Below are positions 10,363-52,712 of a DNA stretch of 64,000 nt, one piece after another. The notes under the pieces were generated by a model, which worked only from the letters and a program-made list of their open reading frames with translations, was not told where the DNA came from and did not search any database. The stretch lies in assembly GCA_016235825.1 (NCBI GenBank), contig JACRIL010000102.1, positions 751 to 64,750 of the forward strand, read 5' to 3'. How positions within the stretch are numbered: position 1 is the first letter of the stretch; each line of letters starts with the position of its first letter. A program made the translations under genes and the position numbers. Origin of the DNA: Planctomycetota bacterium (lineage in GTDB: Bacteria; Planctomycetota; Phycisphaerae; SM23-33).

Positions 10363-10446
10363 AAAAGATTCATCCGACGTTCAAATGTTGCGAGAATTGG
10401 AGGTCACGCTGATATGCTATACCGCGTGCAACAACCGGGGAAGTCA

Positions 10447-11625
10447 ATGTGGCATATCATTCCAATCCTTTTGAGTTTGGGATATTGTCTTACCGGATGT
10501 ACCGAGCCGGGCGATACTACGCCAAAAATGGACCTTCCGGACACGATCTTGGAGGCATGCCGACAGGAAAATCCTGATTTGCTCAAGCCGTATTTTGTCG
10601 GGCCGGAGGATTATGTTTTTCAAACAGAAGACAGTTGGTATGTCCCGCCGTCGACACCTGCGAATTCTGAGAAGGCGGCAGCGATCTGGACGGATGAGGT
10701 ACGAAAGGCAACCCTGCAATCTTTTAAGAAAGTATGCGACGACCTGAAGGATACCGGGATCGACCTAAAAAACGCCCGGATAACGCAGGCCAAAGTATAC
10801 TCTTCAAATGTATTTAATTTTCTTGCCGACTACAGCAAGGCGTTTCTTATAGGCGATATTTCTTGCGAGTTGGGCAACCCTCCATTCAAACGCTTTGTCG
10901 CGACTTTTGATGATTGGCTTGTAACTGAATTAAAACAGAATGATAAAGCCGCCTCGATATTCTGGATGGTTCGCAAGACGCCGCGCGGCCCCAGGCTTCT
11001 GGGTGGCGTATATCATTATTTCAACGGCCCAATTGATCGAGGCTTCGTTATGGGGACGACGATAGAGGAATATGGGAAAATAGGGTGGTATGGTTTACAG
11101 GAAGATTATCTCGGAATAGCCAGGATGATCGCTCAACGTGGAATTCCGATGGGGTTTTTCAGGATTGTCCAGCAGACCGGAGTGATCGATTGGGCCGAAA
11201 CTGAGCTGTCATATATTGTTTTGGAATTCCCCCAATCTTTACATGATGACCGCATCGACTCAATCTGGATTGAGGCAGGATACGTTGATGGCCGGATCGA
11301 ATTGACGGAAACGGGGCCGGGTACCCTTGTCTTCCAGGGAAGCCAAATGTTGCTGGATCTGGATATGGAATTCAAAGTGTCCATTACGCTCGATATAAAA
11401 AAAGAAGATGCCGAGAAGCCGCTGAATCAATTCTCGTCTATTCAGGCAAAAGACCGTTACAACCTCCGCAACTTCAAAAAGATATGCGATTCGCCGTTAA
11501 AATTCCGATCCCCTTCAAGAGAGTATATAAGTTATGGCAAGAAGGGAGGAATCATTTTTATCGACGAAAAAGCTTATAGCGTGGAGCTGGATGGCATGAT
11601 TTACAAGCGGGAAGACAAAGAATGA
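10447..11625 (+). CDS. hypothetical lipoprotein (low-GC island)
   Basis: Signal plus lipobox MWHIIPILLSLGYCLTGC. I recognise no family. Base composition is clearly AT-richer than the flanks. Confidence 0.5.
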   Translation: MWHIIPILLSLGYCLTGCTEPGDTTPKMDLPDTILEACRQENPDLLKPYFVGPEDYVFQTEDSWYVPPSTPANSEKAAAIWTDEVRKATLQSFKKVCDDLKDTGIDLKNARITQAKVYSSNVFNFLADYSKAFLIGDISCELGNPPFKRFVATFDDWLVTELKQNDKAASIFWMVRKTPRGPRLLGGVYHYFNGPIDRGFVMGTTIEEYGKIGWYGLQEDYLGIARMIAQRGIPMGFFRIVQQTGVIDWAETELSYIVLEFPQSLHDDRIDSIWIEAGYVDGRIELTETGPGTLVFQGSQMLLDLDMEFKVSITLDIKKEDAEKPLNQFSSIQAKDRYNLRNFKKICDSPLKFRSPSREYISYGKKGGIIFIDEKAYSVELDGMIYKREDKE

Positions 11626-13870: not shown

Positions 13871-14087
13871 CGCTTCAGGGTTTCTGCCGTGTCCGACAGG
13901 CGGTTAGATTGAAAGGCCGATACGCCCGTTTCGGGAGGCAAGCGCGTGTTGCTCCGGCGACAGCCAGCCGCCCACTTGAAATAACGGGTCTTTCAAGCAG
14001 CCGCCACCGGCACAAAGGCGGACGCCCGGGCAATTTGGACGATGCACCTCTGTGCATCAGCCCACGGCTTGCCGTGGGCTTTTTTTT
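13871..14087 (+). ncRNA. candidate ~220-nt structured small RNA (family unassigned), or a terminated leader upstream of prfB
   Basis: Bounded by the promoter above and a strong intrinsic terminator. Long-range pairing 13899-13918 / 13986-14005 (GGCGG..TTGAAAGGCC with GGGTCTTTCAA..CCGCC). Internal hairpins CCCG-TTT-CGGG and GATGCAC-CTCT-GTGCATC. No convincing ORF. Confidence 0.45.
14059..14087 (+). terminator. Rho-independent terminator
   Basis: AGCCCACG-GCTTGC-CGTGGGCT followed by an eight-T run. Confidence 0.8.
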
Positions 14088-20643: not shown

Positions 20644-20892
20644 ATGGAATGGACCGCGGAGATTATGACGGATCCTGCTCGGGATCATGAATTACACGTG
20701 GAACTCAGGCAAGATGAACTGTATCGCGCCCGTATCTATCAGGATGAACAAGGCAAAATACAATTGCAATTGTACGATGGAAAACCTGGAATATTACCTG
20801 TGGAATGGCTGACAGGAATTATTGATGGATTCAAAAATGATTTGCGGACCTCCGGCCAAAGCCGCATCAATAAAAATGGCGCCAATCCATGA
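20644..20892 (+). CDS. hypothetical small protein (low-GC island)
   Basis: 82-aa ORF with an SD-like GGTGAG. It shares low GC with the following Bro-N gene. No family recognised. Confidence 0.35.
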   Translation: MEWTAEIMTDPARDHELHVELRQDELYRARIYQDEQGKIQLQLYDGKPGILPVEWLTGIIDGFKNDLRTSGQSRINKNGANP

Positions 20893-20971
20893 TGCTTTTA
20901 CAAGTTAATGGATGCGAACTTTCTGGAGCCCTTTGGGCGATTGAAATGTATGGAAAGGAAAGGGATAAATA

Positions 20972-21808
20972 ATGGCTGGACAATCCACACAGATAGCGTT
21001 GTTTAAGGGCAAAGAAATCAGAAAAACAATTCACAATAATGAATGGTGGTTTTCGATAATTGATATTGTTGAGGCATTAACGGATTCAGGACGGCCTCGC
21101 AAATATTGGAGCGATTTGAAGAAAAAGCTCGTAAAAGAGGGCTATTCTGAAGTGTCCGAAAAAATCGGACAGTTGAAATTGATTTCGCCGGATGGGAAAT
21201 CCAGAACAACGGATTGTGCGGATACTGAGACGGTTTTCCGGATAATCCAGACAATACCCTCTCCCAAAGCCGAGCCGTTCAAGCGCTGGCTGGCCAAGGT
21301 CGGCTATGAACGCATTGCGGAAATAGAAGACCCTGAACTGGCGACCAAACGTGCCCGCGCGATATACAAGGCCAAGGGATATCCGGACGACTGGATCGAA
21401 AAGCGCATGCGGTCCATCGCCATTCGCGAGGAATTGACGGACGAATGGAAAAATCGGGGCGTCGCCGAGCAAAAAGATTACGCCATTCTCACAGCCGAAA
21501 TATCCAAGGCCGCTTTCGGCGTAACACCTTCGGAATACAAGAGGCTCAAAGGCCTCGAACGCCAGAATCTGCGCGACCACATGAACGACCTTGAGCTGAT
21601 TTTTTCAATGTTGGGCGAGGCCGCCACTACCGAAATCACCCGTAACCGCGACACGCAGGGATTTGATGAAAATAAGCGGGCCGCGGTAGATGGCGGTTCA
21701 GTCGCGGGAAATGCCAGAAAAGAACTGGAGGCAAAGTCAGGTAAAAAAGTGGTCTCCCGCCAAAATTATCTGCCGGAAAAAGCGGCAAAGAGGCTTCCGA
21801 AAAAATAA
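20972..21808 (+). CDS. Bro-N domain protein, DinD/antirepressor-like
   Basis: N-terminus FKGKEIRKTIHNNEWWFSIIDIVEALTDS matches the Bro-N pattern (IR....dge.wF...Dv..aLg). The C-terminal helical region is WIEKRMRSIAIREELTDEW. Low GC. Confidence 0.65.
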   Translation: MAGQSTQIALFKGKEIRKTIHNNEWWFSIIDIVEALTDSGRPRKYWSDLKKKLVKEGYSEVSEKIGQLKLISPDGKSRTTDCADTETVFRIIQTIPSPKAEPFKRWLAKVGYERIAEIEDPELATKRARAIYKAKGYPDDWIEKRMRSIAIREELTDEWKNRGVAEQKDYAILTAEISKAAFGVTPSEYKRLKGLERQNLRDHMNDLELIFSMLGEAATTEITRNRDTQGFDENKRAAVDGGSVAGNARKELEAKSGKKVVSRQNYLPEKAAKRLPKK

Positions 21809-22080: not shown

Positions 22081-23409
22081 ATGAAAAGGTATTATTCGGC
22101 CATGAATATGAGGCGAGACAAATCGGTTCGAGCGTTCGGCCGGGCGTGCAAGGTATTGGTGGGGGGGGTGGATTCGCCGGTGCGAGCGTTTGCGGCGGTG
22201 GGGGGCGGGCCGGCGTTTATCGAGCGGGCGGCCGGGCCGTTTGTTTACGATCTGGACGGCAATCGTTACATAGATTACGTCGGGACGTGGGGGCCGGCGA
22301 TCCTGGGCCATGCGCATCCGGCGGCGGTGGGGGCCATCGCGTCAGCGGTCCGGCGCGGCAGCAGCTTCGGCGCGCCCTGCCAGGCCGAGACGCGGCTTGC
22401 GACGCTCATCTGCCGGGCCTTCGGGTCGGTCAAAAAGGTGCGATTCGTCTCCAGCGGGACCGAGGCGGTGATGACGGCGGTGCGTCTGGCCCGCGGGGCG
22501 ACGGGGCGGGACAAGATAATCAAGTTCGCCGGATGCTATCACGGACATTCTGACGCCCTGCTCGTTGCGGCCGGCAGCGGGGCGACGACGCTGGGAATAC
22601 CGAGCAGCGCGGGCGTGCCGGCCGGGGCGGCAAGAGACACGCTGACCGCGCCGTACAACGATCCCGATGCGGTCGGGCGGCTGCTGAAAAAATTCCGCGG
22701 CAAGGTCGCGGCGGTGCTGGTCGAGCCGGCGGCGGGCAATATGGGCGTGGTCGCGCCGGCGAAAGGTTTCCTGAGCGGCCTGCGGAAACTGTGCGACAGG
22801 CACGGCGCGCTGCTAATCTTCGACGAGGTGATGACGGGCTTTCGGCTCGCACGCGGCGGGGCGCAGGAACTCTACGGCGTTCGGGCCGACATCACTACCT
22901 TGGGCAAGATCATAGGCGGCGGCATGCCGGTCGGGGCGGTCGGCGGGCCGGCCAAGATAATGGACAATCTCGCCCCGCTGGGCAGGGTGTACCAGGCCGG
23001 GACGCTCTCGGGCAATCCGGTCGCTATGGCCGCCGGCATCGCGACGCTGGAACTGCTGCAAAACAGGCGGGTTTACGCCGACATCGAGCGGGCGGGCCGG
23101 CGGCTTGAAACAGGCTTGCTCCGTGCGGCTGCCAGTGCCGGCCTGCGGGGCAAAATCTGCGTCAATCGCGTCGGCAGCATGATGACGGTTTTCTTCCGCG
23201 GGCCTCCGGTCCGCAACTACGCCGACGCCACAGGCTCCAACATCCGCGCCTTCGCCGAATTCTTCCACGCCATGGCCGATCAGGGCATTTATCTGCCGCC
23301 CAGCCAGTACGAGGCGTGGTTCATCTCGGCCCGCCACGGCCCGGCCTTGATAGATCGGACGATTCGCTCGGCGACAAAGGCCTTTACCCGAGCCGCCAGA
23401 TTGATGTAA
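22081..23409 (+). CDS. hemL: glutamate-1-semialdehyde 2,1-aminomutase
   Basis: GGVDSPVRAF, LIFDEVMTGFRL and TLGKIIGGGMPVGA (PLP Lys). The true start may be ATG 22102 (MNMRRDKS). Confidence 0.9.
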   Translation: MKRYYSAMNMRRDKSVRAFGRACKVLVGGVDSPVRAFAAVGGGPAFIERAAGPFVYDLDGNRYIDYVGTWGPAILGHAHPAAVGAIASAVRRGSSFGAPCQAETRLATLICRAFGSVKKVRFVSSGTEAVMTAVRLARGATGRDKIIKFAGCYHGHSDALLVAAGSGATTLGIPSSAGVPAGAARDTLTAPYNDPDAVGRLLKKFRGKVAAVLVEPAAGNMGVVAPAKGFLSGLRKLCDRHGALLIFDEVMTGFRLARGGAQELYGVRADITTLGKIIGGGMPVGAVGGPAKIMDNLAPLGRVYQAGTLSGNPVAMAAGIATLELLQNRRVYADIERAGRRLETGLLRAAASAGLRGKICVNRVGSMMTVFFRGPPVRNYADATGSNIRAFAEFFHAMADQGIYLPPSQYEAWFISARHGPALIDRTIRSATKAFTRAARLM

Positions 23410-23486
23410 AATCCAACATGTCGGCCCGGCGGGGCTGGCGGAAGCATATCCGCCCGGCCGATAACATAAAGGAAGGTCGAACGACT

Positions 23487-24197
23487 ATGCCAAACGAGAC
23501 GGTATGCAAGCAGCATCTGGATGCGTTCCGGACTGCCAAGATCGCCAAGAATGTTATGTTCGGCCTGCTGCTGCTGGTGATGCTGGCCCAGATCGCCGGA
23601 TTCGCCCTGGTTTACTTCTTCGACGTGATCGACTATGCCCCGGAGCTCCAGAACAGGCTCTCAGCCAGGGCGGCGCCGACAAGCATGCCGGCCGTCCCGC
23701 CCGCGGCTAACGTGGAAGTCCGGGCCGGCGAGATTTACCTGCTGCTCAAGTGGGGCCTGCACGTCAGCCGGATGCTGGCGTTTTTCTGCAGCATCCTGTT
23801 CTGCCTTGTCCTGCTGCTGTACGTCAACCTGTCGATTGTAAGCCGCCTGGGCGACATGGCGGGATTCATCAGCGCTTTCTTCTGGTCGCTGGTGCTCCTG
23901 GCCGTTCTGATGCCGTGGTACAAGCTGTTTCCGACCGAACTGGCCCAGGGAGCGCTGTTCAATCTGGAAGACCTTATAGAGCAGACCCGCAACGTGAAGA
24001 ATTCCTGGACGGCCGGCCGGGCCATTCCGCCTGAGCAGTTGATTCTCTATTTCACGCGGTTTGCGGCCTATCCGCTTTTCGCCCTGATCGTGCTGCTGGT
24101 CTGCCAGTGCCGGTTCATGCACGGCTACAAGCCGATCGGACAGCTTGTCCGAGGCCAGTCGGACGAACCGACGACCCAGGCTGGGGTTTCGCTTTAG
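23487..24197 (+). CDS. hypothetical four-TM membrane protein
   Basis: Start MPNETV after AAGGAAGG. It has four hydrophobic segments. First gene of a tightly spaced four-gene unit. Confidence 0.5.
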   Translation: MPNETVCKQHLDAFRTAKIAKNVMFGLLLLVMLAQIAGFALVYFFDVIDYAPELQNRLSARAAPTSMPAVPPAANVEVRAGEIYLLLKWGLHVSRMLAFFCSILFCLVLLLYVNLSIVSRLGDMAGFISAFFWSLVLLAVLMPWYKLFPTELAQGALFNLEDLIEQTRNVKNSWTAGRAIPPEQLILYFTRFAAYPLFALIVLLVCQCRFMHGYKPIGQLVRGQSDEPTTQAGVSL

Positions 24198-24228
24198 GCG
24201 TCTCCCCGGCCCCGGATGGAACCAACAA

Positions 24229-25131
24229 ATGCCCGCCAGAACAGCCAATCCGGGATCCCAGAGAGCGACGAAAATCGCGAGATTCTGCGCGTTGGCGGCG
24301 ATGGGTTTTTCTCTGCCGGGCTGTCCGCCGCCTTATGGCCCGAATTCCAATCCCGCGGCCCAGACCCGCCCGGGCGACGAATCGCCGGGAGCCCGGGAGG
24401 ACGGCGGCGAGCGGTCGAAGATCGCCGCGGGGCAGGGCTTCCTCTTCGAGATAGTGCTCAAGACCACCGTCGTCGAGGCGCCGGCCGGGACGATCAGCTC
24501 GTCGGAGGACATCTGGAGCTACGTTGACGAGGAACCTGTCAGCGGGCGGGCGTCGGGCCTGCTGGGCAGGAACGGAATTCGCGCCGGCGTCGGGCCCAGC
24601 GAGAATTGGCCTCGGGTTGCCGCGGTCCTGAATCGACTGGCGGGCAAGCCCCTGAGACATTCGATAAGCACCGTCTTTCCGGGCGACAGGACCTCGCTGC
24701 CGGCCGTCGTTTACGACCAGCCTCAGACCATTTTCATGTTCCGCGGCGACCTGACGCTCATGGGGGCCGACTACCCGGCCGGGGAATACTCATTCAATCT
24801 GGCCGCATGGCTCGACCAGGACGACCCGGGCCGCCTGATACTGGCTTTCTGTCCGAAGGCGGTCTCGGCCAAACGCGAGTCGCAGTTCGTCCCGGGGCCG
24901 CATGGAATGGAGATGATAACCCGTCCGGCGGAGCACATCCTGGACCAGACGGCCTTCAATCTGGCCATGAGGTCCGGAGAATTTCTCGTGATAGGCCCCG
25001 GCTGGCAGGCGGCCAGGTCCGACAGCATCGGCGGGGTCTTTTTCACCCGCAAAACGAATGACATTCGCATGGAGACCGTTTACATTATTGTGCCGGAGAT
25101 AAAAGCCCGTCCGATTCAGCGCGGGGGCTGA
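24229..25131 (+). CDS. lipoprotein with a secretin-like core/C-terminal signature
   Basis: Lipobox FCALAAMGFSLPGC. FEIVLKTTVVEAPAGTISSSEDIW resembles the start of a secretin domain. MRSGEFLVIGPG....IGGVFFTRKTNDIRMETVYIIVPEI resembles the secretin C-terminal G..v.GG...G.LF.....l...i.P.i pattern. By-eye only. Confidence 0.45.
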   Translation: MPARTANPGSQRATKIARFCALAAMGFSLPGCPPPYGPNSNPAAQTRPGDESPGAREDGGERSKIAAGQGFLFEIVLKTTVVEAPAGTISSSEDIWSYVDEEPVSGRASGLLGRNGIRAGVGPSENWPRVAAVLNRLAGKPLRHSISTVFPGDRTSLPAVVYDQPQTIFMFRGDLTLMGADYPAGEYSFNLAAWLDQDDPGRLILAFCPKAVSAKRESQFVPGPHGMEMITRPAEHILDQTAFNLAMRSGEFLVIGPGWQAARSDSIGGVFFTRKTNDIRMETVYIIVPEIKARPIQRGG

Positions 25132-25170
25132 CAGGCCCGATCGGGCCGGCCGGCGCAAAAACCAGAAAAT

Positions 25171-26283
25171 ATGACCGGACAACCGAATCAGACAGGCCTG
25201 CCGGCGGATTCCTTCTGCCGCCAGTTGTTCCAGAATGTCCAGGTCGCCCTGGTCGCGGTGGACGCCGATTTCAACGTTACATGCTGCAACCAGACGGCGA
25301 GCATGCTTCTGGCCGTTGCGCCGCTCGACGCTGTAGGCAGGCCCGTCCACCAGCTCGTGCCCGAGAATTGCAGGAACCTGCTGGACAAGATGCTCCGTCG
25401 CGCGATGGCCCGGCGCGAGCCGGCGCAGTTTGACATGTCAATTCCGCTGCCGGACTCGCAAACCAGATGCCTGATGGCTGTGCTGTCGCCCATCCGCGAC
25501 GACCAGGACAGGGATGTCGGCGCGGCGATCTGGCTGGCGGACCGCACGGAAAGCAGGCGGATGGCCGAGCGGCTGGCAGCGGCTGACCGCATGGCCGCCA
25601 TCGCCGCCTTCGCAGGCGGGGTGGCTCATCACTTCAACAATATAATGGGCGCCATAACAACGTCGGTCGATCACGCCCTGACCAGCGGCGACTATTCGGC
25701 CATGCGCAAGGCTCTTCAGATAGCCGCCGACGGGACCGCGCGGGCCGCGAGGATAACGCAGGCGATGCTGGCCTTCGCCGAGCGCGACAGCAGGCGGTCC
25801 GAGCCGGCCGACTGCGCCGAGATACTGATAAACTTCTCCCGGCTGATCGAAAGGCCTCTGGCCAAGCGCAACATAAAGCTCGCGCTCGATCTCAAGCCGA
25901 CGCCCCCGGTCCGGCTGGACAGCAACCGTATGCACCAGATTCTGGGCAACCTGCTGACCAACGCCGAGGAGGCCATGCCGGCCGGCGGGCAGATTTCGCT
26001 CGGTCTGGACGCCGCCGGAGACGAGATCGTCGTTACCTTCGCCGACACCGGCTGCGGCATCAGGCCCGAACATCTCGGAAAGATATTCCAGCCGTTCTTC
26101 ACGACCAAAGGTCCGCTCCACGGCGGCAGCCAGAACAATCCGGGGCTGGGCCTGGCCATGGTGCACGGCATGGTCATGGACATGGGCGGAAGAATATTCG
26201 TCGAGTCCGAGCCGGACAGAGGCGCGAAGTTCTCCATGTTCTTCCCCGTCCGGCCCCGGCCCGCCGGCATGGAAGAAGACTGA
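25171..26283 (+). CDS. soluble PAS-domain sensor histidine kinase
   Basis: H-box FAGGVAHHFNNIMGAI. HATPase_c motifs LGNLLTNAEEAM, DTGCGI and GLGLAMVHG. No adjacent response regulator. Confidence 0.8.
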   Translation: MTGQPNQTGLPADSFCRQLFQNVQVALVAVDADFNVTCCNQTASMLLAVAPLDAVGRPVHQLVPENCRNLLDKMLRRAMARREPAQFDMSIPLPDSQTRCLMAVLSPIRDDQDRDVGAAIWLADRTESRRMAERLAAADRMAAIAAFAGGVAHHFNNIMGAITTSVDHALTSGDYSAMRKALQIAADGTARAARITQAMLAFAERDSRRSEPADCAEILINFSRLIERPLAKRNIKLALDLKPTPPVRLDSNRMHQILGNLLTNAEEAMPAGGQISLGLDAAGDEIVVTFADTGCGIRPEHLGKIFQPFFTTKGPLHGGSQNNPGLGLAMVHGMVMDMGGRIFVESEPDRGAKFSMFFPVRPRPAGMEED

Positions 26284-26309
26284 CCGCGGCGAGGAACGTT
26301 CATCCTGCA

Positions 26310-27668
26310 ATGGCGGCATCGAAGGAAAATCGCGGCGATGCACCTCCGGAAAGGCTCAGGCCCAAACGTATCCTGCTGGAGTGCACATGGACATATCTTC
26401 ACGAGATCAACACCGGCATCGCCAGGGTGGTTCGCGGGATAGTCCGGAACGCACCGCAACTCTGCGAGCAATACGGAATTGCATGCCAGCCCGTGATCAT
26501 CCGGGCGGACGGATTTCAGGCCGTCGGCTCTTTGCCATCTGCCGGGTCCGGCCCGGCCGGCGGCATGGAAAAAAAGATAATCTCCCTGATCTCGCGGGCG
26601 GCCGGGACAGCGCCTGGCTTCAATTATTTTCTGACGCGGACTTCCCCGGGCCGCTTCATCCTGAAGCTGGGCGGCGGCATCGTGAAAACGGCTAAGGAGA
26701 TCGTCTTGTCGCTACTGCCTCGCGGCGGGCACGTCGAAGTTTCGCCCGACGATCTTGTCGTCATGCTCGATTCAAGCTGGAAGGCGTGCCCCTGGGATTA
26801 CATCGCCCGGCTCAGAAAAAATGGGGCCGTCGTCGCCGCCGTTCTTTACGACATGCTGCCCGTCCGGTTTCCCGGCTCCTTTTATCCGGACCTTGTGGAT
26901 GTCTACCGGAATTGGCTGTCGCGCGCGTGCGGGCATCACGATTTCTTCATGGCGATATCGGGCGCTACCCGCGACGATTTTCTCCGCTACATGAGCAAAA
27001 ACACGGGTTCGCCGCGGGCGCCCCGCGTGGAGGTCTTTCCGCTGGGCGCGGACTTGCATGGCAGTTTGGCGTCGGGCGCGGTCCGGCCGGTTTTTCAGGA
27101 TGTATTCCGCGGCGGAAGCAGGCCGTTCCTGATAGTCTGCACCCTGGAGCCGCGGAAAAACCACGCGTTTCTGCTGGACGCCTTCGACCTGGCCTGGAAG
27201 GAGGGCGTCGACGCCCGGCTGGTGATCGTCGGGAAGATCGGCTGGATGTGCGAGCCGCTCGTCGAGCGAATAAGAAAACATCCGCAATTCGGCCGGAACC
27301 TTTTCATGTTCAACGACGCCGGCGACGCCGAGGTCGCCTTCGCTTACGAAAATGCCCGGGCAATGGTCTTCCCTTCGGTAGCCGAGGGGTTCGGCCTGCC
27401 GATCATCGAATCGCTCAGCCGCGGGCTGCCCGTTCTGGCCAGCGACATCCCGGTTCATCGGGAGGTCGGCGGGCAGTATTGCACTTATTTTTCCCTCTTC
27501 TCGCCCCGCGAACTTGCGGATTTATTGATCCGATGCCTCAAGCAGGAAAATTTTCTGAAAGCCCCGCCGCCGGGACAGTTCAAATGGACGACCTGGCAGG
27601 AAAGCACGCGGATGTTTCTGGAAAAAATCCTGCGGGTCTGGGCGGAGAAGAAGGCCGGCCAGGCGTAG
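26310..27668 (+). CDS. glycosyltransferase family 4 (GT-B)
   Basis: C-terminal FPSVAEGFGLPIIESLSRGLPVLASD (EX7E-type motif). Confidence 0.8.
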   Translation: MAASKENRGDAPPERLRPKRILLECTWTYLHEINTGIARVVRGIVRNAPQLCEQYGIACQPVIIRADGFQAVGSLPSAGSGPAGGMEKKIISLISRAAGTAPGFNYFLTRTSPGRFILKLGGGIVKTAKEIVLSLLPRGGHVEVSPDDLVVMLDSSWKACPWDYIARLRKNGAVVAAVLYDMLPVRFPGSFYPDLVDVYRNWLSRACGHHDFFMAISGATRDDFLRYMSKNTGSPRAPRVEVFPLGADLHGSLASGAVRPVFQDVFRGGSRPFLIVCTLEPRKNHAFLLDAFDLAWKEGVDARLVIVGKIGWMCEPLVERIRKHPQFGRNLFMFNDAGDAEVAFAYENARAMVFPSVAEGFGLPIIESLSRGLPVLASDIPVHREVGGQYCTYFSLFSPRELADLLIRCLKQENFLKAPPPGQFKWTTWQESTRMFLEKILRVWAEKKAGQA

Positions 27669-27711
27669 CATGGGCGTCTCGCCCATGAGCATCACGGCCG
27701 TCCCGGCCGTG
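27669..27711. repeat. two 19-nt palindromic hairpins immediately after the stop codon
   Basis: CATGGGCG-TCT-CGCCCATG (27669-27687) and CACGGCCG-TCC-CGGCCGTG (27693-27711). The same modules occur at 37285-37372. Confidence 0.85.
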
Positions 27712-27910
27712 GCTTTTGTTGTTTTCCTGACTTTTCAGGGGCAAGACTTGTCCGGCGCAGCATTTGCGAAGCCGAAAGCACAGTGCGGGACATTGGGCGG
27801 TACAGCCTGCTTGCAGGCTGTGTAGCATAGTGCAAACAAATCGAGGCACCCGCGCGTGGCGACAGGTAAATCCCAATTCCCCCTACCTTGCGAATTCCGT
27901 GTCGCCGCGG

Positions 27911-28050
27911 TTGAGGCCCGACGGGCCGGAAGATAGTAGCCCCAGGTGAAGCGGAGGACGGCGGCAACCGTCCGAAGCGCAACCTGGGGACAGATCGTCA
28001 TTAAATAAGTTTCCAAATCTCCGTTTGCGCCACGGCAGAAGCGGCAGAAT
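27911..28050 (+). repeat. family-1 repeat unit
   Basis: ttgaggcccgacgggccggaagatAGTAGCCccaggtgaagcgg...gcgcaacctgggg...cattaaata...cacggcagaag. It aligns with 11774-11908. Confidence 0.8.
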
Positions 28051-28118
28051 TTTTGAATACCACGTCCAATGAGAATGGCCAATTCATTGTTCTGTTGCTG
28101 CAAAGGATAAATGCGGCA

Positions 28119-28258
28119 GGCGGCGCCCTCAAACGAAGCGGCTTGTCCGGCGTAGTCTTGACGAAGCCGGAAGCAGAGTTTGGGGTGCCGGTTAATTTAT
28201 TGACGCCTTCAAAAACTTCACCCCCAAGCTTCACTTCGTTTCGCTTGAGGGTGCCACC
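28119..28258 (-). mobile_element. MITE-like element, copy 2 (reverse orientation, ~20-nt internal deletion relative to copy 1)
   Basis: The reverse complement aligns end to end with 15331-15493. The last ~62 nt are near-identical (ggtggcaccctcaagcgaaacgaagtgaagcttgggggtg.agtttttgaagg). Confidence 0.6.
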
Positions 28259-28291
28259 GGCCAATGCATCGACCAGGATCATTGGCCGGGG

Positions 28292-28446
28292 CATTTGAAA
28301 GTCAAGCCCCGTCTGCCGGCGGCGGGATCGAAAATTTGAAACTTCATCGGATGGAGGTTTTCCCCGGGTTTCGCTTCGTCCGCCTGACGGCGGACTGCGT
28401 TGCACCCGGGGCTACTTTCTGCCGGCTCTTCGAGCCTTCAAACTGG
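28292..28446. repeat. family-1 units (28292-28340 +, 28362-28446 -)
   Basis: The reverse complement of 28362-28446 is ccagtttgaaggctcgaagagccggcagaaAGTAGCCccgggtgcaacgcagtccgccgtcaggcggacgaagcgaaacccgggg. It is nearly identical to the 11.8-kb hairpin. Confidence 0.8.
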
Positions 28447-28668
28447 TCGCACTGGACTTGCAAGGTATTGCTGTCCTTCTGAAAATTCATGCAATGAGAC
28501 AAAACCGGGACCGAAATTGTACGGAGAAACTGCTTCTGCCCGACGAATTCTCCCGCAATCGATCCATTGCCGGTTTCTGCCGGTGGCCGTAAAGCGTTAA
28601 ACAGGAGGTTGCTATTCCGCAGGATCACGTCTCATTCACCGCGTTTTTGGGAGGGGAACCAAAAAAGA

Positions 28669-32211: not shown

Positions 32212-32403
32212 AGGCTCGAAGAGCCGGTAGACAGTAGCCGTAGGCGTAAGCCTACGGTACGGATTGCTCCAGGATAAAGAGCCTCGGAGAGGCGACAGAA
32301 ATTTCTGAAAGTCTGTGCCGCCTCGTCGAGGCTCAAATCATAATGGGCCTGAATTCCGGAGGCTTACGCCTCCGGCTACTCTCTTCCAACCCTTCGGGTT
32401 TGG
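32212..32403. repeat. ~190-bp foldback built from two inverted family-1 units flanking a central imperfect hairpin
   Basis: The 32212-32262 unit is ggctcgaagagccggtagacAGTAGCCgtaggcGTAAgcctacgg. The central hairpin is 32278-32334 (GAGCCTCGGAGAGGCG...CGCCTCGTCGAGGCTC). The reverse complement of 32355-32403 is acccgaagggttggaagagAGTAGCCggaggcGTAAgcctccgg. Confidence 0.75.
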
Positions 32404-33063: not shown

Positions 33064-34542
33064 ATGGCAGAACCGGCACAGATTGAGACGATCGAGACGC
33101 CCAACCCTCGCCCGATGACGCGATGGTTCACGGGGGGGTTGCTTTTTATGGCGGTGCTGCTGCCGCTGCTGTTTCTGGTTTCGGTGCGGCCGGAGCACTT
33201 GGGCGGCGTGCTGATGGCCTATCTGAATTGCCTGGTCATCTCGCTCATGTGCGTCTACCTGGTCCGCAAGTGCAGTCTCCAGGCGATTGTGCCGGTCCTG
33301 TTCCTGGGATTTTTCGCCATGTCCTGGCCTCTGCCGATAATCCATCTGGCCATCGCCGAACCCGATTCGGCTTACGAGACGCTCTACAGCACGTATTCGC
33401 ACCAGGGAAACCAGGTCCATTTCCAGTTTGTCCTGCTGATCTTCCTGTTCTTTTTCATGCTGGGCGTGCTGCCGTTCGTGGGGCATCGCAAGACGACGGT
33501 GCCGGGGATCGAGGACCGCGTATCGCCCGAATCGGCCAGGGCGATGGCGTCGCTGGTCTCGATTGTGGCAATCTTCATGATCTCCCTGCACATTTTCACG
33601 CAGGTTTTCCCGATCTCCTCGGCCCTGAATTACCTGGCACAGGGGGCCTTTCTTTACCTTGTCGGGCTGTTCATAACGTCCGGCGCGCTGTTCATGTATA
33701 TGTCGCGCCTGGCCCTGATGATCCTGCTGGGCATCCTTGCCTGTGCGGCTGGCGTGTACATGATAGGCAACGCCCGGTCCTGGGCTTTTTATCCGTTTTT
33801 CGGGCTGGCGATAGGGTTCATGTTCCTCACCGCCGTCAGCCAGAAGATAAAACTGGGGCTGCTGCTGCTTATCATCGCGGTCTTTCCGGTCGTGCTGGTC
33901 ATAACCAACACCACCCGCGAGGTGCTGGGCGACGTCGGCTTCAAGGACCTCGGGATGCGGTGGCAGGCGATGGGCCAGTGGAAGGACGTGCTGGCCCAGG
34001 GTTCGACCGGCGCCAGGTCGTCAACGAGGCTTTTCTGCGAGGCTTCGCATCTGATAGTAACGACCACGCCGGACACGAGGGATTATATCGGTTTCGACCC
34101 GTACCGGTTCATGACGACTCTCGTCAGCCGGCTGTTCATCCCCGGCGTGATATCCAGCCGCGCCGACTATACCAACACGGAGATACTTCCCACGTACGGC
34201 ATAGAAATCACCGAGACCTCGTCGGTGCCGATAGGCATAATCGGATCGTTCTGGGTGCTGGGCGGGATGATCCCGCTGATATTCGGCGCTCTGGCGACGG
34301 GGGCGATAATCGGCCTGTGCGCCAGGGCGATCGGCAATTATGAGAATGTCTCGCCGCTGAAGGCCCTGTTCGTGCTGTCGGTGCTGGCGCCGCAGCTTTT
34401 CGAGGCTCCGCTGTCCGATATCATTTCGCTGGCGAAGTTCCTGCTCTGGCGGATGGTCGCCGCATTGATACTGTATAATGTGTTTTTAGGCGGGCTGATC
34501 GGCGACACCGGCCGGTCCGAACCCGCGGTCCACCCGGCCTAG
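33064..34542 (+). CDS. polytopic membrane protein, putative O-antigen/EPS polymerase (Wzy-like)
   Basis: 492 aa with at least 10 hydrophobic segments and one larger loop. It lies in a locus with a methyltransferase, an AsnB-type amidotransferase and GT4 genes. Assignment is by context only. Confidence 0.5.
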   Translation: MAEPAQIETIETPNPRPMTRWFTGGLLFMAVLLPLLFLVSVRPEHLGGVLMAYLNCLVISLMCVYLVRKCSLQAIVPVLFLGFFAMSWPLPIIHLAIAEPDSAYETLYSTYSHQGNQVHFQFVLLIFLFFFMLGVLPFVGHRKTTVPGIEDRVSPESARAMASLVSIVAIFMISLHIFTQVFPISSALNYLAQGAFLYLVGLFITSGALFMYMSRLALMILLGILACAAGVYMIGNARSWAFYPFFGLAIGFMFLTAVSQKIKLGLLLLIIAVFPVVLVITNTTREVLGDVGFKDLGMRWQAMGQWKDVLAQGSTGARSSTRLFCEASHLIVTTTPDTRDYIGFDPYRFMTTLVSRLFIPGVISSRADYTNTEILPTYGIEITETSSVPIGIIGSFWVLGGMIPLIFGALATGAIIGLCARAIGNYENVSPLKALFVLSVLAPQLFEAPLSDIISLAKFLLWRMVAALILYNVFLGGLIGDTGRSEPAVHPA

Positions 34543-34602
34543 CGGACCGGGAATTCGGCAGAGACGAAAGGATGCGCTGGCGACTCTGGAGAAGATGGCC
34601 GC

Positions 34603-35334
34603 ATGAAAGACTGGAAACAGCGTTTGTATGACAATTACATCTCGACCGGGCAAGCCGGAACGGGTATCAATCGGCAGACCGGCCTGAATATCGGCGATTA
34701 TCCCTACTTTTCCAGACTCATCAGGAAACACCTGCCGGACAGGAAAGACATTGCCATTCTTGATTTGGCCTGCGGACATGGAGCATTGATATACTGCCTG
34801 AAGAAACTCGGTTATTGCAATCTTGAAGGAGTTGATATTTCACCGCAGCAGGTGGCTTTGGCGCATGAATCAGGGTTAAGAGAAATCAGATGCCAGGACA
34901 TGATGGATTTTCTGAAAGACAAAGTAAACGCTTTTGATGTCATCTTTTTGATGGACATTCTTGAACATTTGAGCAAAGTCGAGCTTTGCGATTGCCTGGA
35001 TCAAGTCAGTAAATCGCTGACAGCAAATGGAATGGTTGTAATACATGTTCCCAACGCGGAAGGAATATTCGGGATGAGGATCCGCTACGGGGATGTGACA
35101 CACGAGAACTGTTTCACCCCGCAGTCAATCAGACAGGCATTAAGAGTCTGCGGCATCCATAGCGTGGAATGTTTTGAAGACAAGCCCCTTATTCATGGTT
35201 TAAAAAGCTTATTCAGGTATATTTTATGGGTGCTGTTGACAGCGCCATTTCGCTTGTTGTTGGCTGCGGAGACTGGAACTACCGGGCAGGTTCTTTCCCA
35301 GAATATGTTGGTCGTTGCAAGGAAATTTGCCTGA
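34603..35334 (+). CDS. class I SAM-dependent methyltransferase (low-GC)
   Basis: Motif I ILDLACGHGALI and post-I FLMDILEHL. Confidence 0.8.
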   Translation: MKDWKQRLYDNYISTGQAGTGINRQTGLNIGDYPYFSRLIRKHLPDRKDIAILDLACGHGALIYCLKKLGYCNLEGVDISPQQVALAHESGLREIRCQDMMDFLKDKVNAFDVIFLMDILEHLSKVELCDCLDQVSKSLTANGMVVIHVPNAEGIFGMRIRYGDVTHENCFTPQSIRQALRVCGIHSVECFEDKPLIHGLKSLFRYILWVLLTAPFRLLLAAETGTTGQVLSQNMLVVARKFA

Positions 35335-35363
35335 CATGGCGGGAATACGGCAGAGACAAAAGC

Positions 35364-37268
35364 ATGTGCGGGATAGCCGGCATAATAACGAAGGACGCCC
35401 CGGCGGCGGAGTCGGCGCTGGCGAAGATGGGCGATACCCAGCGCCATCGCGGGCCTGACGATGCCGGGCGGGTCGTCCTGCCGTTCGGGCGGGCGAGCCT
35501 GGGGCTGGGCCATCGCAGGCTGGCGATACTCGATCTCTCGCCGGCCGGCCATCAGCCGATGGTCTGCCCGACGACCGGCAACGTCATCGTCTTCAACGGC
35601 GAGATATACAATTATTTGCGTCTGCGGCGTGAGCTTGCCGATATGGGCCAGCGATTTGCCGGCAGCAGCGACACCGAGGTGCTGCTGCACGCGCTGGGCC
35701 GCTGGGGGCCGGAATGTCTCGCCCGGCTGGAAGGGATGTTCGCCCTGGCGTTTTACGACGCACGGGCGGGCAGGCTGATTTTGGCCCGCGATCCCATGGG
35801 CATCAAGCCGCTCTACGTGGCGGCAGGCCGCGAGCAATTCGCATTCGCCAGCGAGATAGGCGCGCTGTTGGCGGCCGGGCTGACAGACCGGCAGATCGAC
35901 CCGGTTGGCCTGGAAAGTTTTCTGGCTTACGGGTCTGTGCAGGAACCGGCCACGTTTTTCAAGGACGTCAAAGCATTTCCGCCGGGTTGCCGGCAGGAGT
36001 TCACGGCCCAAGGCGATTCGTGGAGGGCGCAGCCGCCGGTGAAACACTGGTTTTTCCCTCGCCGCGACGACCGGGCGGGCGGGGGCGACCTGCCGGAGGC
36101 AATACGATCTACTCTCGATCAGGCCGTCGCAGATCATCTCGTCAGCGACGTGCCGGTCGGGGTGTTCCTGTCGGCCGGGCTGGACAGCTCGACCATCGCC
36201 GCGCTGGCGAAAAAGCACAGCCCGGACCTGCGGGCATACACCGTCGGCTTTTCGGGCCGGCGCGGCAAAAGCGAGAGCGGACCGGCGGCCCAAACGGCGA
36301 TGTCGCTGGGCATGAGACACGAACTGATCGAACTTTCCGCCGAACAGGCGCTGGCCGACTGCGGATGCTGGCTTGAACATATCGACCAGCCGTCAATCGA
36401 CGGGCTGAACACGTACATCATCAGCAAGGCCGTCCGATCGGCCGGGATTGTGGTGGCCCTGTCGGGTCTGGGCGGCGACGAACTGTTCGGCGGATACTCC
36501 ACGTTCTTTCGCGCACCGTTAATCGCCCGCGCGGGAGAGATCGCCGGGGAGCTTGGCCGGCCGGCCGCCAAAGCGTTCATCGCGATGTTGTCCGCGGTAA
36601 TGCCACAGTATCGCAGGCACAAATTCCTTGACACGCCGCTGTCCGGCGGCCTGATGGCTGCGTATCTGCATTGCAGGCGTGTGTTCAGCGAAGACAGCCT
36701 GGCCAGGCTTGGCCTGAAGGGATCGGCCTGCGCGGACGGCCGGCGACATCTGCCGCGCGAGGCCGAGACGAGCATCGAGATTGATCCGGCCGATGGAGTC
36801 TGGACGGTCAGCATGCTGGAGTCGCGTCTGTACATGCGGAACACGCTGCTGCGCGACGCCGACGCGAACGGCATGGCCCACGGGTTGGAGATTCGCGTGC
36901 CGATGCTCGACCGGCGGATGCTGGACCTGATGCTTCCGCTGCCCGGCCGCACCAGGCTGCCCAACGGCAGGCCGAACAAATTTCTGCTGCGCTCTGCGAT
37001 GGCCGACCTGCTCGACCGCCGGCTGCTGGGGCGGCCCAAGACCGGCTTCGCCCTGCCGATAGACGCCTGGATGCGAACCTCGATGCGGCCGCTCTGCCGC
37101 GATGCGATAACGTCGCTGAAATCATCAGGCCTGCTCGATCCGCGGGGCATCGAGGCGATCTGGCGGGAGTTCATCGACAACCCGGCCAACACCCGGTGGT
37201 GCGAACCGCTGGGACTGGTGGTCCTGGGTTTGTATCTGGATAAGATCAGGGCCATAAGACTATTATGA
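35364..37268 (+). CDS. asnB: asparagine synthase (glutamine-hydrolysing) family amidotransferase
   Basis: N-terminal nucleophile MCGIAGI, the GAT-II domain, and the PP-loop variant FLSAGLDSS. The true start is the internal ATG of ORF 35226..37268. Confidence 0.85.
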   Translation: MCGIAGIITKDAPAAESALAKMGDTQRHRGPDDAGRVVLPFGRASLGLGHRRLAILDLSPAGHQPMVCPTTGNVIVFNGEIYNYLRLRRELADMGQRFAGSSDTEVLLHALGRWGPECLARLEGMFALAFYDARAGRLILARDPMGIKPLYVAAGREQFAFASEIGALLAAGLTDRQIDPVGLESFLAYGSVQEPATFFKDVKAFPPGCRQEFTAQGDSWRAQPPVKHWFFPRRDDRAGGGDLPEAIRSTLDQAVADHLVSDVPVGVFLSAGLDSSTIAALAKKHSPDLRAYTVGFSGRRGKSESGPAAQTAMSLGMRHELIELSAEQALADCGCWLEHIDQPSIDGLNTYIISKAVRSAGIVVALSGLGGDELFGGYSTFFRAPLIARAGEIAGELGRPAAKAFIAMLSAVMPQYRRHKFLDTPLSGGLMAAYLHCRRVFSEDSLARLGLKGSACADGRRHLPREAETSIEIDPADGVWTVSMLESRLYMRNTLLRDADANGMAHGLEIRVPMLDRRMLDLMLPLPGRTRLPNGRPNKFLLRSAMADLLDRRLLGRPKTGFALPIDAWMRTSMRPLCRDAITSLKSSGLLDPRGIEAIWREFIDNPANTRWCEPLGLVVLGLYLDKIRAIRLL

Positions 37269-37284
37269 ACCGGACTGATTTTTT

Positions 37285-37372
37285 CGTGGCACGGGCATCT
37301 TGCCCGTGTGTTCCATGGGCGTCTCGCCCATGCACGTTCGCAGCTTCTCACGGCCGGGACGGCTGTGCCACG
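37285..37372. repeat. array of three 19-nt palindromic hairpins enclosed by CGTGGCA/TGCCACG
   Basis: CACGGGCA-TCT-TGCCCGTG (37290-37308), CATGGGCG-TCT-CGCCCATG (37314-37332) and CACGGCCG-GGA-CGGCTGTG (37349-37367). The array starts 17 nt after the asnB stop. Confidence 0.85.
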
Positions 37373-37389
37373 AATTTATTGGGGCGATA

Positions 37390-38634
37390 ATGAATCGGAC
37401 CGGTTCTCTGAAAATTGTCCACACGATAACGTCTATCGCGTCATCGACCGGCGGGCCGGCCAGGTCGGTCGTCGGGTTGTGCGAGGCGCTGGCCCGGCAG
37501 GGACATCGGCCGGCGATCTGCACGCAGGATACAACTGAATCGCTTGGTCCGGATTTTCCGGCCGACCCGTCGGTAGCGGTAATCAGATCGCGATGTATGT
37601 TCGTCCGTCCGCTGCGGCTGGCCGTTCCGGTCGGGTACGGCAGGGCGCTCGATTCGGCATGCGGCAGAGCCGACGTCCTGCATTCACACGGGCTGTGGGA
37701 GCCGATCAATTATCTTGCGGCACGGACGGCAGCCCGGCTGAAAATTCCGCACGTGATTTCGCCTCGCGGTTCTTTGCAGCAGGCTGCGCTGCGAAGGTCC
37801 GGCTGGAAAAAGGCCGTCGCGGGCGCCGTTTTCGCCCGGCGCACCCTTGCGTCGGCGGATTGCATCCACGCGGCCTCGATGCTGGAGGCGCGGCACGCGG
37901 CGATGTACCAGCCGCATGCGCGGGCGATAGCGGTTGTGCCCAACGGCCTGGACCTGGCTGAATATCAGGACTGCGACGAGGATCGCGGCAGGCAAATTCT
38001 CGAGGTCCGCTGGCCGGAGATGAAGGGCAGGCGAATCGTCCTGTTTCTCGGCCGGCTGCACCCGCACAAGGGAACGGTCGAACTCATCGAGGCCTGGGCG
38101 GAATTGACGCGGACCGCCGCCGGGCATGATCGCGATTGGCTGCTCGTGCTGGCCGGGCCAGACCAGGACGGCCACGCCGCGCAGCTCCGCCGCAGGCTGG
38201 CGGACCTTGGCGCGGCGGACAGCGTCGTCTTTACGGGCCAGGTTGCGGGTCAGGAAAAGCTCGCCCTGCTGGCCGCGTGCCGGTTTCTCGTGCTGCCCAG
38301 CGCCAGCGAGAACTTCGGGCTGGCCGCGGCCGAGGCGCTCGCGTCCGCCCGGCCGGTCGTGGTCAACGAGTCTTCGCCCTGGCAGGAGCTTGAACAGACC
38401 GGCTGCGGACTGGTCGCCGTCGGGCGGCCAGGAGGGTCGCTGCGCGAGTGCGTCAGCCGGATGATGTCGATGCCAGACGCCGGCCTGGCGGAAATGGGCC
38501 GGTCGGGCAGAAAATTTGTGCAGGACCGTTTCGCATGGCAGACGGTAGCGGAACAGATGATCGCCCTTTATGATTGGCTGGCCCGCGACGGCCCCAGGCC
38601 GGCGTTCGTCTATCGTCCGCCCGAACTGGTTTGA
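37390..38634 (+). CDS. glycosyltransferase family 4
   Basis: Start MNRTGSLKIVHTITS. C-terminal LPSASENFGLAAAEALASARPVV motif. Confidence 0.8.
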   Translation: MNRTGSLKIVHTITSIASSTGGPARSVVGLCEALARQGHRPAICTQDTTESLGPDFPADPSVAVIRSRCMFVRPLRLAVPVGYGRALDSACGRADVLHSHGLWEPINYLAARTAARLKIPHVISPRGSLQQAALRRSGWKKAVAGAVFARRTLASADCIHAASMLEARHAAMYQPHARAIAVVPNGLDLAEYQDCDEDRGRQILEVRWPEMKGRRIVLFLGRLHPHKGTVELIEAWAELTRTAAGHDRDWLLVLAGPDQDGHAAQLRRRLADLGAADSVVFTGQVAGQEKLALLAACRFLVLPSASENFGLAAAEALASARPVVVNESSPWQELEQTGCGLVAVGRPGGSLRECVSRMMSMPDAGLAEMGRSGRKFVQDRFAWQTVAEQMIALYDWLARDGPRPAFVYRPPELV

Positions 38635-38735
38635 AGGCTGCACAAAACCCGCCGGAGCAGGCTTTTAATATTACGCCTGCGAAGTTGTAATTTTAATCTT
38701 TGTCATTTTTCTGCTGTTAAAATGATATGAAACAT

Positions 38736-38811
38736 CCCCCTGCTGGCGCAGGGGGCTTTATGATCGGTTCGCCGACGGATTTGTTTTAAAGCCCCGCATG
38801 TAAATGCGGGG
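38736..38811. repeat. family-2 hairpin pair (B then A module)
   Basis: CCCCCTGC-TGGC-GCAGGGGGCTTTATGA, then a 22-nt spacer with a CGG-TTCG-CCG mini-hairpin, then TTTTAAAGCCCCGCAT-GTAA-ATGCGGGGATGC. The same modules form the ends of the 61971-62370 foldback. Confidence 0.8.
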
Positions 38812-38857
38812 ATGCCGCGTTGAAATTCGAGAGTATGTTTCCAGCGGAGAAGAAATA

Positions 38858-52079: not shown

Positions 52080-52310
52080 TCAGGCGATGATGTTCTGCAG
52101 GCCGAAGTGGGTGTCGGATTTTTTCTTGTTGCCGTCGAAGACGCCAGGCGGCGGGGTCTTCATGCCGCCATGCTCGCCCGACTCGCCGGATATGATGTTG
52201 AAAGGACGGAGCTTGAAAATCCTCTCGCAGCCGGGACACATCAATTTTTTGCCGACGGCGTCCGGCTTAGCCCGCAACACCTTCCTGCAATACGGACATG
52301 CGATCTTCAT
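52080..52310 (-). CDS. small zinc-ribbon protein
   Basis: CPYC...16 aa...CPGC in the first 30 residues. Confidence 0.5.
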   Translation of the reverse strand: MKIACPYCRKVLRAKPDAVGKKLMCPGCERIFKLRPFNIISGESGEHGGMKTPPPGVFDGNKKKSDTHFGLQNIIA

Positions 52311-52712
52311 CGTTTAAGCTCCCAAACTGTTGGACAAGCCGCTCATTTGACCACAGGTAGAAATGCCAAACCTGACAGTACGGCAAAAACCTTAACGTCC
52401 TCTTCAAGCCGATGGTCCCTCCCGACCATCATGCTGTACAATGTTATTATAGCATCGTTTTTTTACCTTGCAAGGCTTCAGGAAAAAAATCCTGAATTTG
52501 CCGGTTTTCCGATTTGGCGTCGCGACGATTTCGCATCTAACCATATTATACGATGTGAGTTATGGTTATAATATTTGATTTATACCGTGAACGGAATGCG
52601 GCATGGAAATTCGCAGGAACTTTGTTATTGTAATGATCGGTTAAAAAAGAAACATTTTTGCCCGGCGAACGTTATAAAATAGAAGAGACCCCTTACATAG
52701 ACAGGTTCGCGA

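Follow-up and report, generated by a model that had tools for sequence, protein, structure and literature searches.

What is a lipoprotein that resembles the core of an outer membrane secretin doing in a planctomycete genome, beside a small membrane protein and a kinase? The locus that raises this question lies in a 64-kb stretch from the genome of an uncultured planctomycete of Phycisphaerae type (GenBank assembly GCA_016235825.1, contig JACRIL010000102.1), referred to here as the window. It consists of four plus-strand open reading frames (ORFs), g1 to g4, taken from an ORF listing and re-translation. Each ends in a stop codon, and they are separated by 31, 39, and 26 nucleotides, as stated in an earlier note made from the sequence alone. 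The note described a unit of a four-transmembrane (4-TM) protein, a secretin-like lipoprotein, a soluble PAS kinase, and a GT4 glycosyltransferase, and hydropathy and Pfam searches agree with its identification of g1, g3, and g4. Our subject is the lipoprotein, g2. Our preferred reading, held at about even odds, makes g2 a lipidated and very divergent offshoot of the secretin core with no N domains. It is secretin-like in fold and probably in descent, but we do not file it as a member of the secretin family because it matches no curated secretin profile, has no N domain, and was not seen together with a secretion machine. The four genes are as follows:

23487 to 24197, plus strand: g1, 236 aa, four predicted TM segments (hydropathy)
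24229 to 25131, plus strand: g2, 300-aa lipoprotein (ORF and re-translation)
25171 to 26283, plus strand: g3, 370 aa, soluble PAS-HisKA-HATPase_c histidine kinase (Pfam)
26310 to 27668, plus strand: g4, 452 aa, GT4-type glycosyltransferase (Pfam Glycos_transf_1, 3.4e-19)

Within g2, three segments can be distinguished:

24229 to 24324, plus strand: lipoprotein signal peptide with lipobox LPGC (Cys32), read from the sequence
24325 to 24435, plus strand: Pro/Gly-rich, low-confidence tether, residues 33 to 69 (about 38 residues), poorly conserved and with no predicted secondary structure
24436 to 25116, plus strand: folded core, residues 70 to 296, a secretin-like beta-rich domain in the predicted model

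AlphaFold2 models of g2 were built from 7 sequences (model 1) and from 130 sequences (model 2). The predicted local distance difference test (pLDDT) score over residues 70 to 300 is approximately 90 in model 1 and approximately 97 in model 2, the latter with a predicted template modeling score of 0.76; in the tether, pLDDT is 29 to 43 and 53 to 77, respectively. Both models contain four long strands, 71 to 85 (15 residues), 202 to 223 (22 residues), 226 to 237, and 279 to 295 (17 residues), of which the second and third form a hairpin and the last is the terminal strand. Short helices follow strand 71 to 85 and lead to strand 117 to 122 and a 14-residue helix (124 to 137); five shorter strands lie within residues 143 to 195, and two more short strands come after residue 237. 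The terminal strand is preceded by short helices 259 to 262 and 267 to 272, a region that aligns with the secretin motif G.LF...L.vfI.P.I.

When model 1 was compared with the PDB by Foldseek, the top 16 matches were all secretins (E values of 4e-5 to 9e-3). Secretins were the best structural match in the PDB by two methods and for two models, and they alone filled the top ranks of three fold searches. The structure prediction proposed in the earlier note came out nearest to the fold that it had suspected. Secretins form homo-oligomeric outer membrane channels of 12 to 17 subunits. The secretin core is built from two four-stranded sheets per subunit, with inner and outer barrels and gates (PMC10499894, PMC12531336). 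The order of predicted secondary structure in g2 and strand lengths of 15 to 22 residues would fit this outer-barrel/inner-barrel layout. Neither CsgG, FlgH, Wza, nor PilP was among the 60 matches listed in the fold search, which thus showed no likeness of g2 to other lipoprotein rings and pores (CsgG, FlgH, Wza/OPX, and PilP/GspC-HR). The likeness to secretins is partial: only about half of the g2 domain superposes on them, with scores well below the expectation between established secretin classes. RcpA and PilQ, for example, are 4.3 Å apart over the secretin domain (PMC10499894).

Profile-to-profile alignment with hhalign points in the same direction as the fold. We compared the g2 family with a narrow secretin-core profile of 39 nonredundant GspD/pIV-like sequences and with a broad profile of 47 sequences, to which two CpaC sequences, an RcpA-like protein, MxiD, YscC, the PilQ of an IncI plasmid, M13 pIV, and K-12 GspD had been added. 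At default settings, the broad profile gave a score of 23.7 (P = 0.009) and 164 colinear columns with a Sum_probs of 96.7. None of 60 block shuffles reached this score (16.3 ± 1.3; maximum, 19.9), and their Sum_probs was 14.7 ± 8.2 (maximum, 38.4); the reversed profile scored 13.9, with a Sum_probs of 20.5. With the narrow profile, default settings aligned the last 27 columns alone, which correspond to the terminal strand (G..F...hhhh.P.h) picked out in the earlier note, whereas a permissive alignment kept the two profiles colinear for upwards of 200 columns. Its Sum_probs, 90.5, was higher than in any of 60 block shuffles (30.4 ± 13.6). However, the local score with the narrow profile was reached by 4 of 30 shuffles and then by 1 of 60, which is not clearly above the null, and just Sum_probs stood out. 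A global alignment (-glob) covered 12 columns, was meaningless, and was discarded.

The alignment keeps to the order of the secretin core. Strand 71 to 85 of g2 falls on the first secretin strand, and LLGRNGIRAGVG..W..V..L falls on the strand-helix G..G..W..l..L. The segment TVFPGDRTSLPAVVYDQPQ is placed on the gate-1 region, P.i.tl.n..a.f.vG..vP, and LDQDDPGRLILAFCPKAVS is placed on VLDDG-VINLEIEPEVS, with the nearly invariant P209 of g2 on the conserved Pro. Further on, FLVIGPG aligns with t.vLGGL and G..FF...ETVYIIVPEI with G.LF...L.vfI.P.I. Most of the lip segment is absent from g2, as is the first half (VP.LGdIP) of the amphipathic helical loop. The lipobox and the motif strings quoted in the earlier note were all read back in the g2 translation (FEIVLKTTVVEAPAG at residues 73 to 87, SGEFLVIGPG at 249 to 258, IGGVFF at 267 to 272, and VYIIVPEI at 284 to 291). 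Its by-eye reading of a first and a C-terminal strand is supported here, in that these motifs fall in the alignment on the strands that open and close the secretin core. The sequence evidence for kinship with secretins thus appears weak but nonrandom, and it agrees in register with the evidence from the fold.

Several results from sequence profiles and gene order weigh against our reading of g2 and its partners. The Pfam Secretin profile (PF00263) matched 0 of 130 g2 family members at an E value of ≤1, and searches of hidden Markov models (HMMs) against sequences between the g2 family and secretins reached at most 6 bits in either direction. The hhalign probability was 0.6 to 0.8% for the narrow profile and only 4.5% for the broad profile, which is far below the usual HH acceptance level. 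Gene order was compared across 37 distinct lineages, which remained after near-identical copies had been removed and which combine homologue contigs with 33 loci from GTDB species genomes, using iterative HMM searches over all ORFs. Both g1 and g3 stand next to g2 in only 5 of 28 lineages, and each is missing beside g2 in about 40 to 50% of lineages. The earlier note had named the lack of a Secretin-profile hit as grounds for giving up its reading, and no such match exists for g2 or for the 130 family members.

Other profiles were equally silent. No match to g2 was found in Pfam or NCBIfam at an E value of ≤1, and none of the 130 members consistently matches any other Pfam family. At an E value of ≤10, a GspD/pIV secretin HMM retrieved nothing from the ORFs of the window and of 46 loci. 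Searches of g2 and of its family HMM against PDB sequences (phmmer and hmmsearch) matched lipoprotein signal peptides alone. The Secretin_N, STN, and N0 profiles have no match in g2 or its 130 family members, and g2 has no N0 to N3 or S domain; the earlier note was right on this point, as nothing but the low-confidence tether separates Cys32 from the strand with which the core begins.

These results also bear on the idea that g2 is an ordinary secretin of a type II secretion system (T2SS), type IV pilus (T4P), Tad system, type III secretion system (T3SS), or filamentous phage, merely mis-sized and with its machine encoded elsewhere. The secretin-like fold matches would suit this idea, but we consider it scarcely credible given the absence of PF00263, Secretin_N, and N0 matches and of any N domain, the uniform family length of 270 to 330 aa, and the lack of a PHROGs match. 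No pilin, ATPase, or platform gene was seen around g2, either in the window or among its recurrent neighbors from the 37 lineages. Pfam scans of the larger ORFs of the window found no pilin, secretion ATPase, platform protein, or canonical secretin, and T2SS, T4P, Tad, T3SS, or phage assembly genes were not among the recurrent neighbors within ±5 kb of g2. From the ORFs and flanks covered, we conclude that g2 does not belong to any export machine of the T2SS, T4P, Tad, T3SS, or phage kind and that the GT4 gene is a lineage-specific neighbor.

A different explanation, the main rival, dispenses with the pore. Here, g2 would be a monomeric or low-order periplasmic lipoprotein whose two-sheet beta domain is only superficially like a secretin subunit and which, together with g1, relays an envelope signal to g3. 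The RcsF-IgaA-RcsC, NlpE-CpxA, and QseG-QseE systems follow an analogous logic, and we regard such an accessory sensor as possible, if doubtful. Its difficulties are that secretins alone occupy the top ranks of the fold searches, that the colinear profile alignment beats 60 of 60 shuffles, and that strands of 15 to 22 residues are unusual in a compact soluble sandwich. In addition, g2 has no sequence or fold likeness to RcsF, NlpE, or QseG (the PDB HMM matches being confined to signal peptides), and g3 is not beside g2 in 12 of 32 lineages.

If g2 is instead a reduced secretin core, the lipid-bearing Cys would lead through the tether (about 38 residues) to a miniaturized core (approximately residues 70 to 296) with its parts in secretin order. 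These would be the first long strand and, just after it, a conserved Trp in place of most of the lip; then the strand-helix unit, short strands at the positions of the gate hairpins, and the long hairpin with its conserved Pro; and finally the shortened amphipathic helical loop and the terminal long strand. The N-terminal lipid would take over outer membrane targeting, as it does in lipoprotein secretins. We infer that g2 may assemble as a ring or a gated barrel on the inner side of the outer membrane, where it could contact the conserved, predicted periplasmic loop of g1 in the inner membrane, and that the g1-g2 pair may have a functional link to the soluble kinase g3, serving it as an input on envelope state or being its regulated target. 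Pore or ring formation, outer membrane location, contact with g1, and coupling to the kinase are thus putative features of the model. Taken to its full extent, this model would make g2 the founder of a new class of stand-alone mini-secretins, with a lipid-anchored core of about 225 residues that has no periplasmic domains, forms a gated outer membrane ring without a motor of the pilus, T2SS, T3SS, or phage type, docks on the 4-TM protein, and is wired to a cytoplasmic PAS kinase as a trans-envelope channel or sensor particular to Planctomycetota. We hold this complete version only tentatively.

Whatever its function, g2 belongs to a large family. Homologues of g1, g2, and g3 were found in dozens of other Planctomycetota contigs, so these three genes are not chance ORFs. 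An exhaustive profile search retrieved 927 representative clusters (at 50% identity) of the g2 family at an E value of ≤1e-3 and 527 at ≤1e-10. This search was needed to see the family because a word-index search recovered few relatives (at least 7 with g2 alone and at least 11 with the 130-sequence alignment). Full-length members are uniformly 270 to 330 aa long. The lipobox Cys (Cys32), W96, and N115-G116 are invariant in the 130-sequence alignment, and the motifs W.(Y/L)DEEP, L.RNG.RVG, FLVIGPG, and ET.LV..P.V are conserved. In g2, the n-region is basic, the h-region that follows is hydrophobic and short, and the lipobox LPGC comes next, at residues 29 to 32; a lipobox-like motif is present in 106 of 129 near-full-length family members. 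By sequence, g2 has what marks a predicted bacterial lipoprotein, namely, a signal peptide that ends in a lipobox with an invariant Cys. A gene for prolipoprotein diacylglyceryl transferase (Lgt) is present within the window (59077 to 60498, plus strand). This homologue is oddly long (473 aa), and the LGT domain was matched in two stretches.

The 33 g2 loci found in the scan of GTDB species genomes all belong to Planctomycetota metagenome-assembled genomes (MAGs), with one copy each; the scan was seeded with a 7-sequence alignment of close relatives, so that these genomes are biased toward such relatives and do not fix the range of the family beyond Planctomycetota. Their labels are Phycisphaerae, Phycisphaerales, Planctomycetales, and "Planctomycetaceae," and one is labeled just "uncultured bacterium." We therefore describe g2 as a member of a large, previously unannotated lipoprotein family that has been seen so far just in Planctomycetota, mostly in MAGs labeled Phycisphaerae. 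In the literature, we found no described N-domain-less or planctomycete secretin-like lipoprotein. Neither g1 nor g2 has a match in PHROGs or PADLOC, PADLOC gave nothing for g3 or g4, and the PHROGs matches of g4 were to generic glycosyltransferases. A phage or defense origin of the module was dropped on these results.

The proposed partner of g2 in the inner membrane is equally unannotated. Hydrophobic stretches of g1 cover residues 16 to 49, 90 to 148 (with room for two spans), and 185 to 211, which fits four TM segments. No significant match was obtained in Pfam, NCBIfam, PHROGs, or PADLOC; the sole Pfam row, LPG_synthase_TM, has an E value of 0.006 and 16.5 bits versus a cutoff of 33.4 bits. 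Homologues of g1 adjoin homologues of g2 in other lineages, for example, with 31% identity (E = 1e-27) in L004 and 27% identity (E = 1e-13) in L011. An alignment of 19 distinct g1 homologues revealed one conserved element:

23913 to 23975, plus strand: g1 motif PW(Q/Y)x...A(C/Q)GAL(Y/F)N..L, directly after TM3

In g1 itself, this motif reads PWQQ..ACGALYN..L, and it is the sole strongly conserved motif of the protein. Because of the positive-inside rule, it is predicted to face the periplasm, where it could sit at a place at which a lipoprotein meets g1.

The kinase g3 matches HATPase_c (2.1e-24), PAS_4 (6.3e-13), and, weakly, HisKA (3e-3) in Pfam. It has no hydrophobic segment (maximum KD19, 1.27) and is therefore considered soluble, and because the window ORFs that were scanned include no response regulator, we refer to it as an orphan kinase. 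In L001, the gene immediately after the g2 homologue is a g3 orthologue with 42% identity (E = 3e-104). The H-box of g3, GGVAHHFNN (residues 149 to 157; window positions 25615 to 25641), has a His after the presumed phospho-accepting His, and the L001 orthologue likewise reads AHHFN. An acidic residue is normally expected at that position.

How far do these genes travel together? Of 32 assessable lineages, 16 have a g1 homologue directly before g2 (2 more have one elsewhere in the locus), and 20 of 32 have a g3 orthologue directly after it, with gaps that are often −4 to 45 nucleotides. Where both sides of g2 were compared, g1 only was adjacent in 9 of 28 lineages, g3 only in 11, and neither in 3. 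Lineages that lack g1 have no consistent replacement membrane protein upstream of g2. A lineage with g1 beside g2 tends not to have g3 there, and vice versa. The pairs hemL-g1 and g2-g3 behave as two separable units. In 13 of 37 lineages, the fetched flank contains hemL, most often immediately before g1, and in L033 the hemL-g1 pair has shifted together to the opposite strand, convergent just downstream of g2-g3. No other gene family recurs near g2 within ±5 kb in the 37 lineages. The recurrent set consists, in order, of hemL, the 4-TM gene, the lipoprotein gene, and the PAS kinase gene, in variable combinations.

The glycosyltransferase is not part of this set. A GT4 gene lies beside g2 in 1 of 37 lineages, which is this organism only (the window being L015). 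In L006, a 69%-identical relative, there is no GT4 gene, and the kinase is followed after 23 nucleotides by gluQ-RS. In the window, the approximately 1 kb between the GT4 and gluQ-RS stops (27669 to 28668) contains no convincing ORF, has a GC content of 0.535 versus approximately 0.62, and has no Pfam or Rfam match. Because they are absent from L006, the GT4 gene and this lower-GC DNA are read as a lineage-specific extra and look like a 2.4-kb insertion. The GT4 gene is probably cotranscribed with g1 to g3 here, yet it is not a conserved member of the module. The four-gene unit of the earlier note does not survive this comparison, since its gene order is not conserved as a unit.

The same comparison removes the basis of the reading suggested by the earlier note, by which the four genes would be dedicated jointly to export and a glycan made by the GT4 enzyme would leave through an outer membrane conduit formed by g2. 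The tight spacing of the four genes fits this proposal, as do the position of the sole terminator-like hairpin outside coding sequence, after g4, and the additional GT4 genes 10 to 15 kb downstream. Secretins have also recently been implicated in exopolymer secretion (PMC12475490). However, the conserved partners of g2 are the 4-TM protein and the kinase, the unit contains no polysaccharide polymerase, flippase, OPX, or PCP gene, and the kinase of L006 leads directly into gluQ-RS. The glycan-conduit reading is already largely refuted by synteny, and we rate it as very unlikely.

The surroundings of the four genes include the following features:

22081 to 23409, plus strand: hemL (glutamate-1-semialdehyde aminomutase, Aminotran_3; Pfam, 1.6e-78), not claimed as a functional part
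23383 to 23412, plus strand: promoter-like site upstream of g1 (consensus scan, 9/12 matches; a weak site, consensus match only)
27692 to 27712, plus strand: terminator-like hairpin directly 3' of g4 (9-bp stem with 7 G-C pairs and a T-rich tail; consensus match only)

Downstream of g4, on the opposite strand, are a gluQ-type tRNA-synthetase paralogue and a gene for a membrane-anchored phosphatase. The larger ORFs of the window include housekeeping and sugar metabolism genes, with a separate glycan cluster at 33 to 42 kb. This glycan-type cluster (33064 to 42155) encodes a 492-aa protein with no Pfam match, a methyltransferase, an asparagine synthase, two GT4 enzymes, and a triple-PAS HisKA_3 kinase, and it is unrelated to g2 by synteny.

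Other observations concern the window at large. Just upstream of hemL is a BRO-N/anti-repressor-like gene (20644 to 21808; Pfam Bro-N, 4e-12; phrog_15286, 2e-94), which lies in a 52.7% GC patch (20 to 22 kb) and may be a prophage or mobile-element remnant. A 6S/SsrS RNA match (13878 to 14028, plus strand; 49.2 bits, above the gathering score) is flanked by an ApbE gene and a peptide chain release factor gene (PCRF and RF-1 domains). Two copies of the Acido-Lenti-1 RNA motif are intergenic and about 100 nucleotides apart (32212 to 32257, minus strand, and 32356 to 32401, plus strand). Two minus-strand genes were unexpected in this context, one for a RuBisCO large-subunit-like protein (304 to 1695) and one that joins MtrA-like and pterin-binding domains (54980 to 56614). 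Three plus-strand ORFs have a low third-position GC content (0.43 to 0.53 versus approximately 0.8 in neighbors) and may be recent acquisitions (4789 to 5415, 10414 to 11625, and 52107 to 52571); Pfam identified one as a HEAT/PBS-lyase repeat protein and matched nothing in the other two.

All secretins described in the structural papers cited here have periplasmic N domains and work for a larger machine of export or pilus assembly (PMC10499894, PMC12531336). A core-only, lipid-targeted, kinase-linked family would, if confirmed, change the picture of secretins as N-domain-bearing and machine-bound, and it would indicate how small a secretin fold can become. A motor-independent use of this fold, as a channel or as an envelope sensor, could also come to light. 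If the fold likeness is superficial, the locus would still represent a new, unannotated signaling module of lipoprotein, 4-TM protein, and kinase, although one of narrower interest. The finding would also give a first way into some 900 protein clusters that lack annotation in Planctomycetota, a phylum with poorly understood outer membrane biology. Pfam and NCBIfam miss the family entirely, and the alignment used here could serve as the basis of a new profile.

Among known systems, RcsF, NlpE, and QseG share with g2 a genetic logic in which a lipoprotein goes with a histidine kinase and an inner membrane intermediary, but they have no similarity to g2 in sequence or fold. The kinases of those systems are membrane bound, whereas g3 is soluble. 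In the alignment with GspD of the T2SS and pIV of filamentous phages (PDB 5w68 and 7ofh), most of the lip and the first half of the amphipathic helical loop have no counterpart in g2; the N0 to N3 domains and the S domain are missing as well, and there is no HMM-level similarity. The Tad secretin RcpA/CpaC (PDB 8odn; PMC10499894), which is small and has a reduced lip, is among the closest known relatives of g2. However, RcpA keeps a periplasmic N domain (most homologues also keep N3) and is recognized by Pfam Secretin, neither of which is true of g2. RcpA is encoded in tad operons with an ATPase and pilins, which g2 does not have as neighbors, and it needs the lipoprotein pilotin TadD and is not itself lipidated, whereas g2 carries its own lipobox. 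In this last respect, g2 resembles BfpB, the lipoprotein secretin of a type IVb pilus, which targets itself by N-terminal acylation (PDB 9u5s; PMC12531336) and with which the HxcQ-type "liposecretins" are classed as lipoprotein secretins. BfpB is encoded within the BFP pilus system and has a partner, BfpG, whereas g2 lies outside any pilus system seen. In BfpB, LG, N0, and N3 domains precede the secretin domain; in g2, the lipid anchor is followed by a disordered tether that leads straight into the core.

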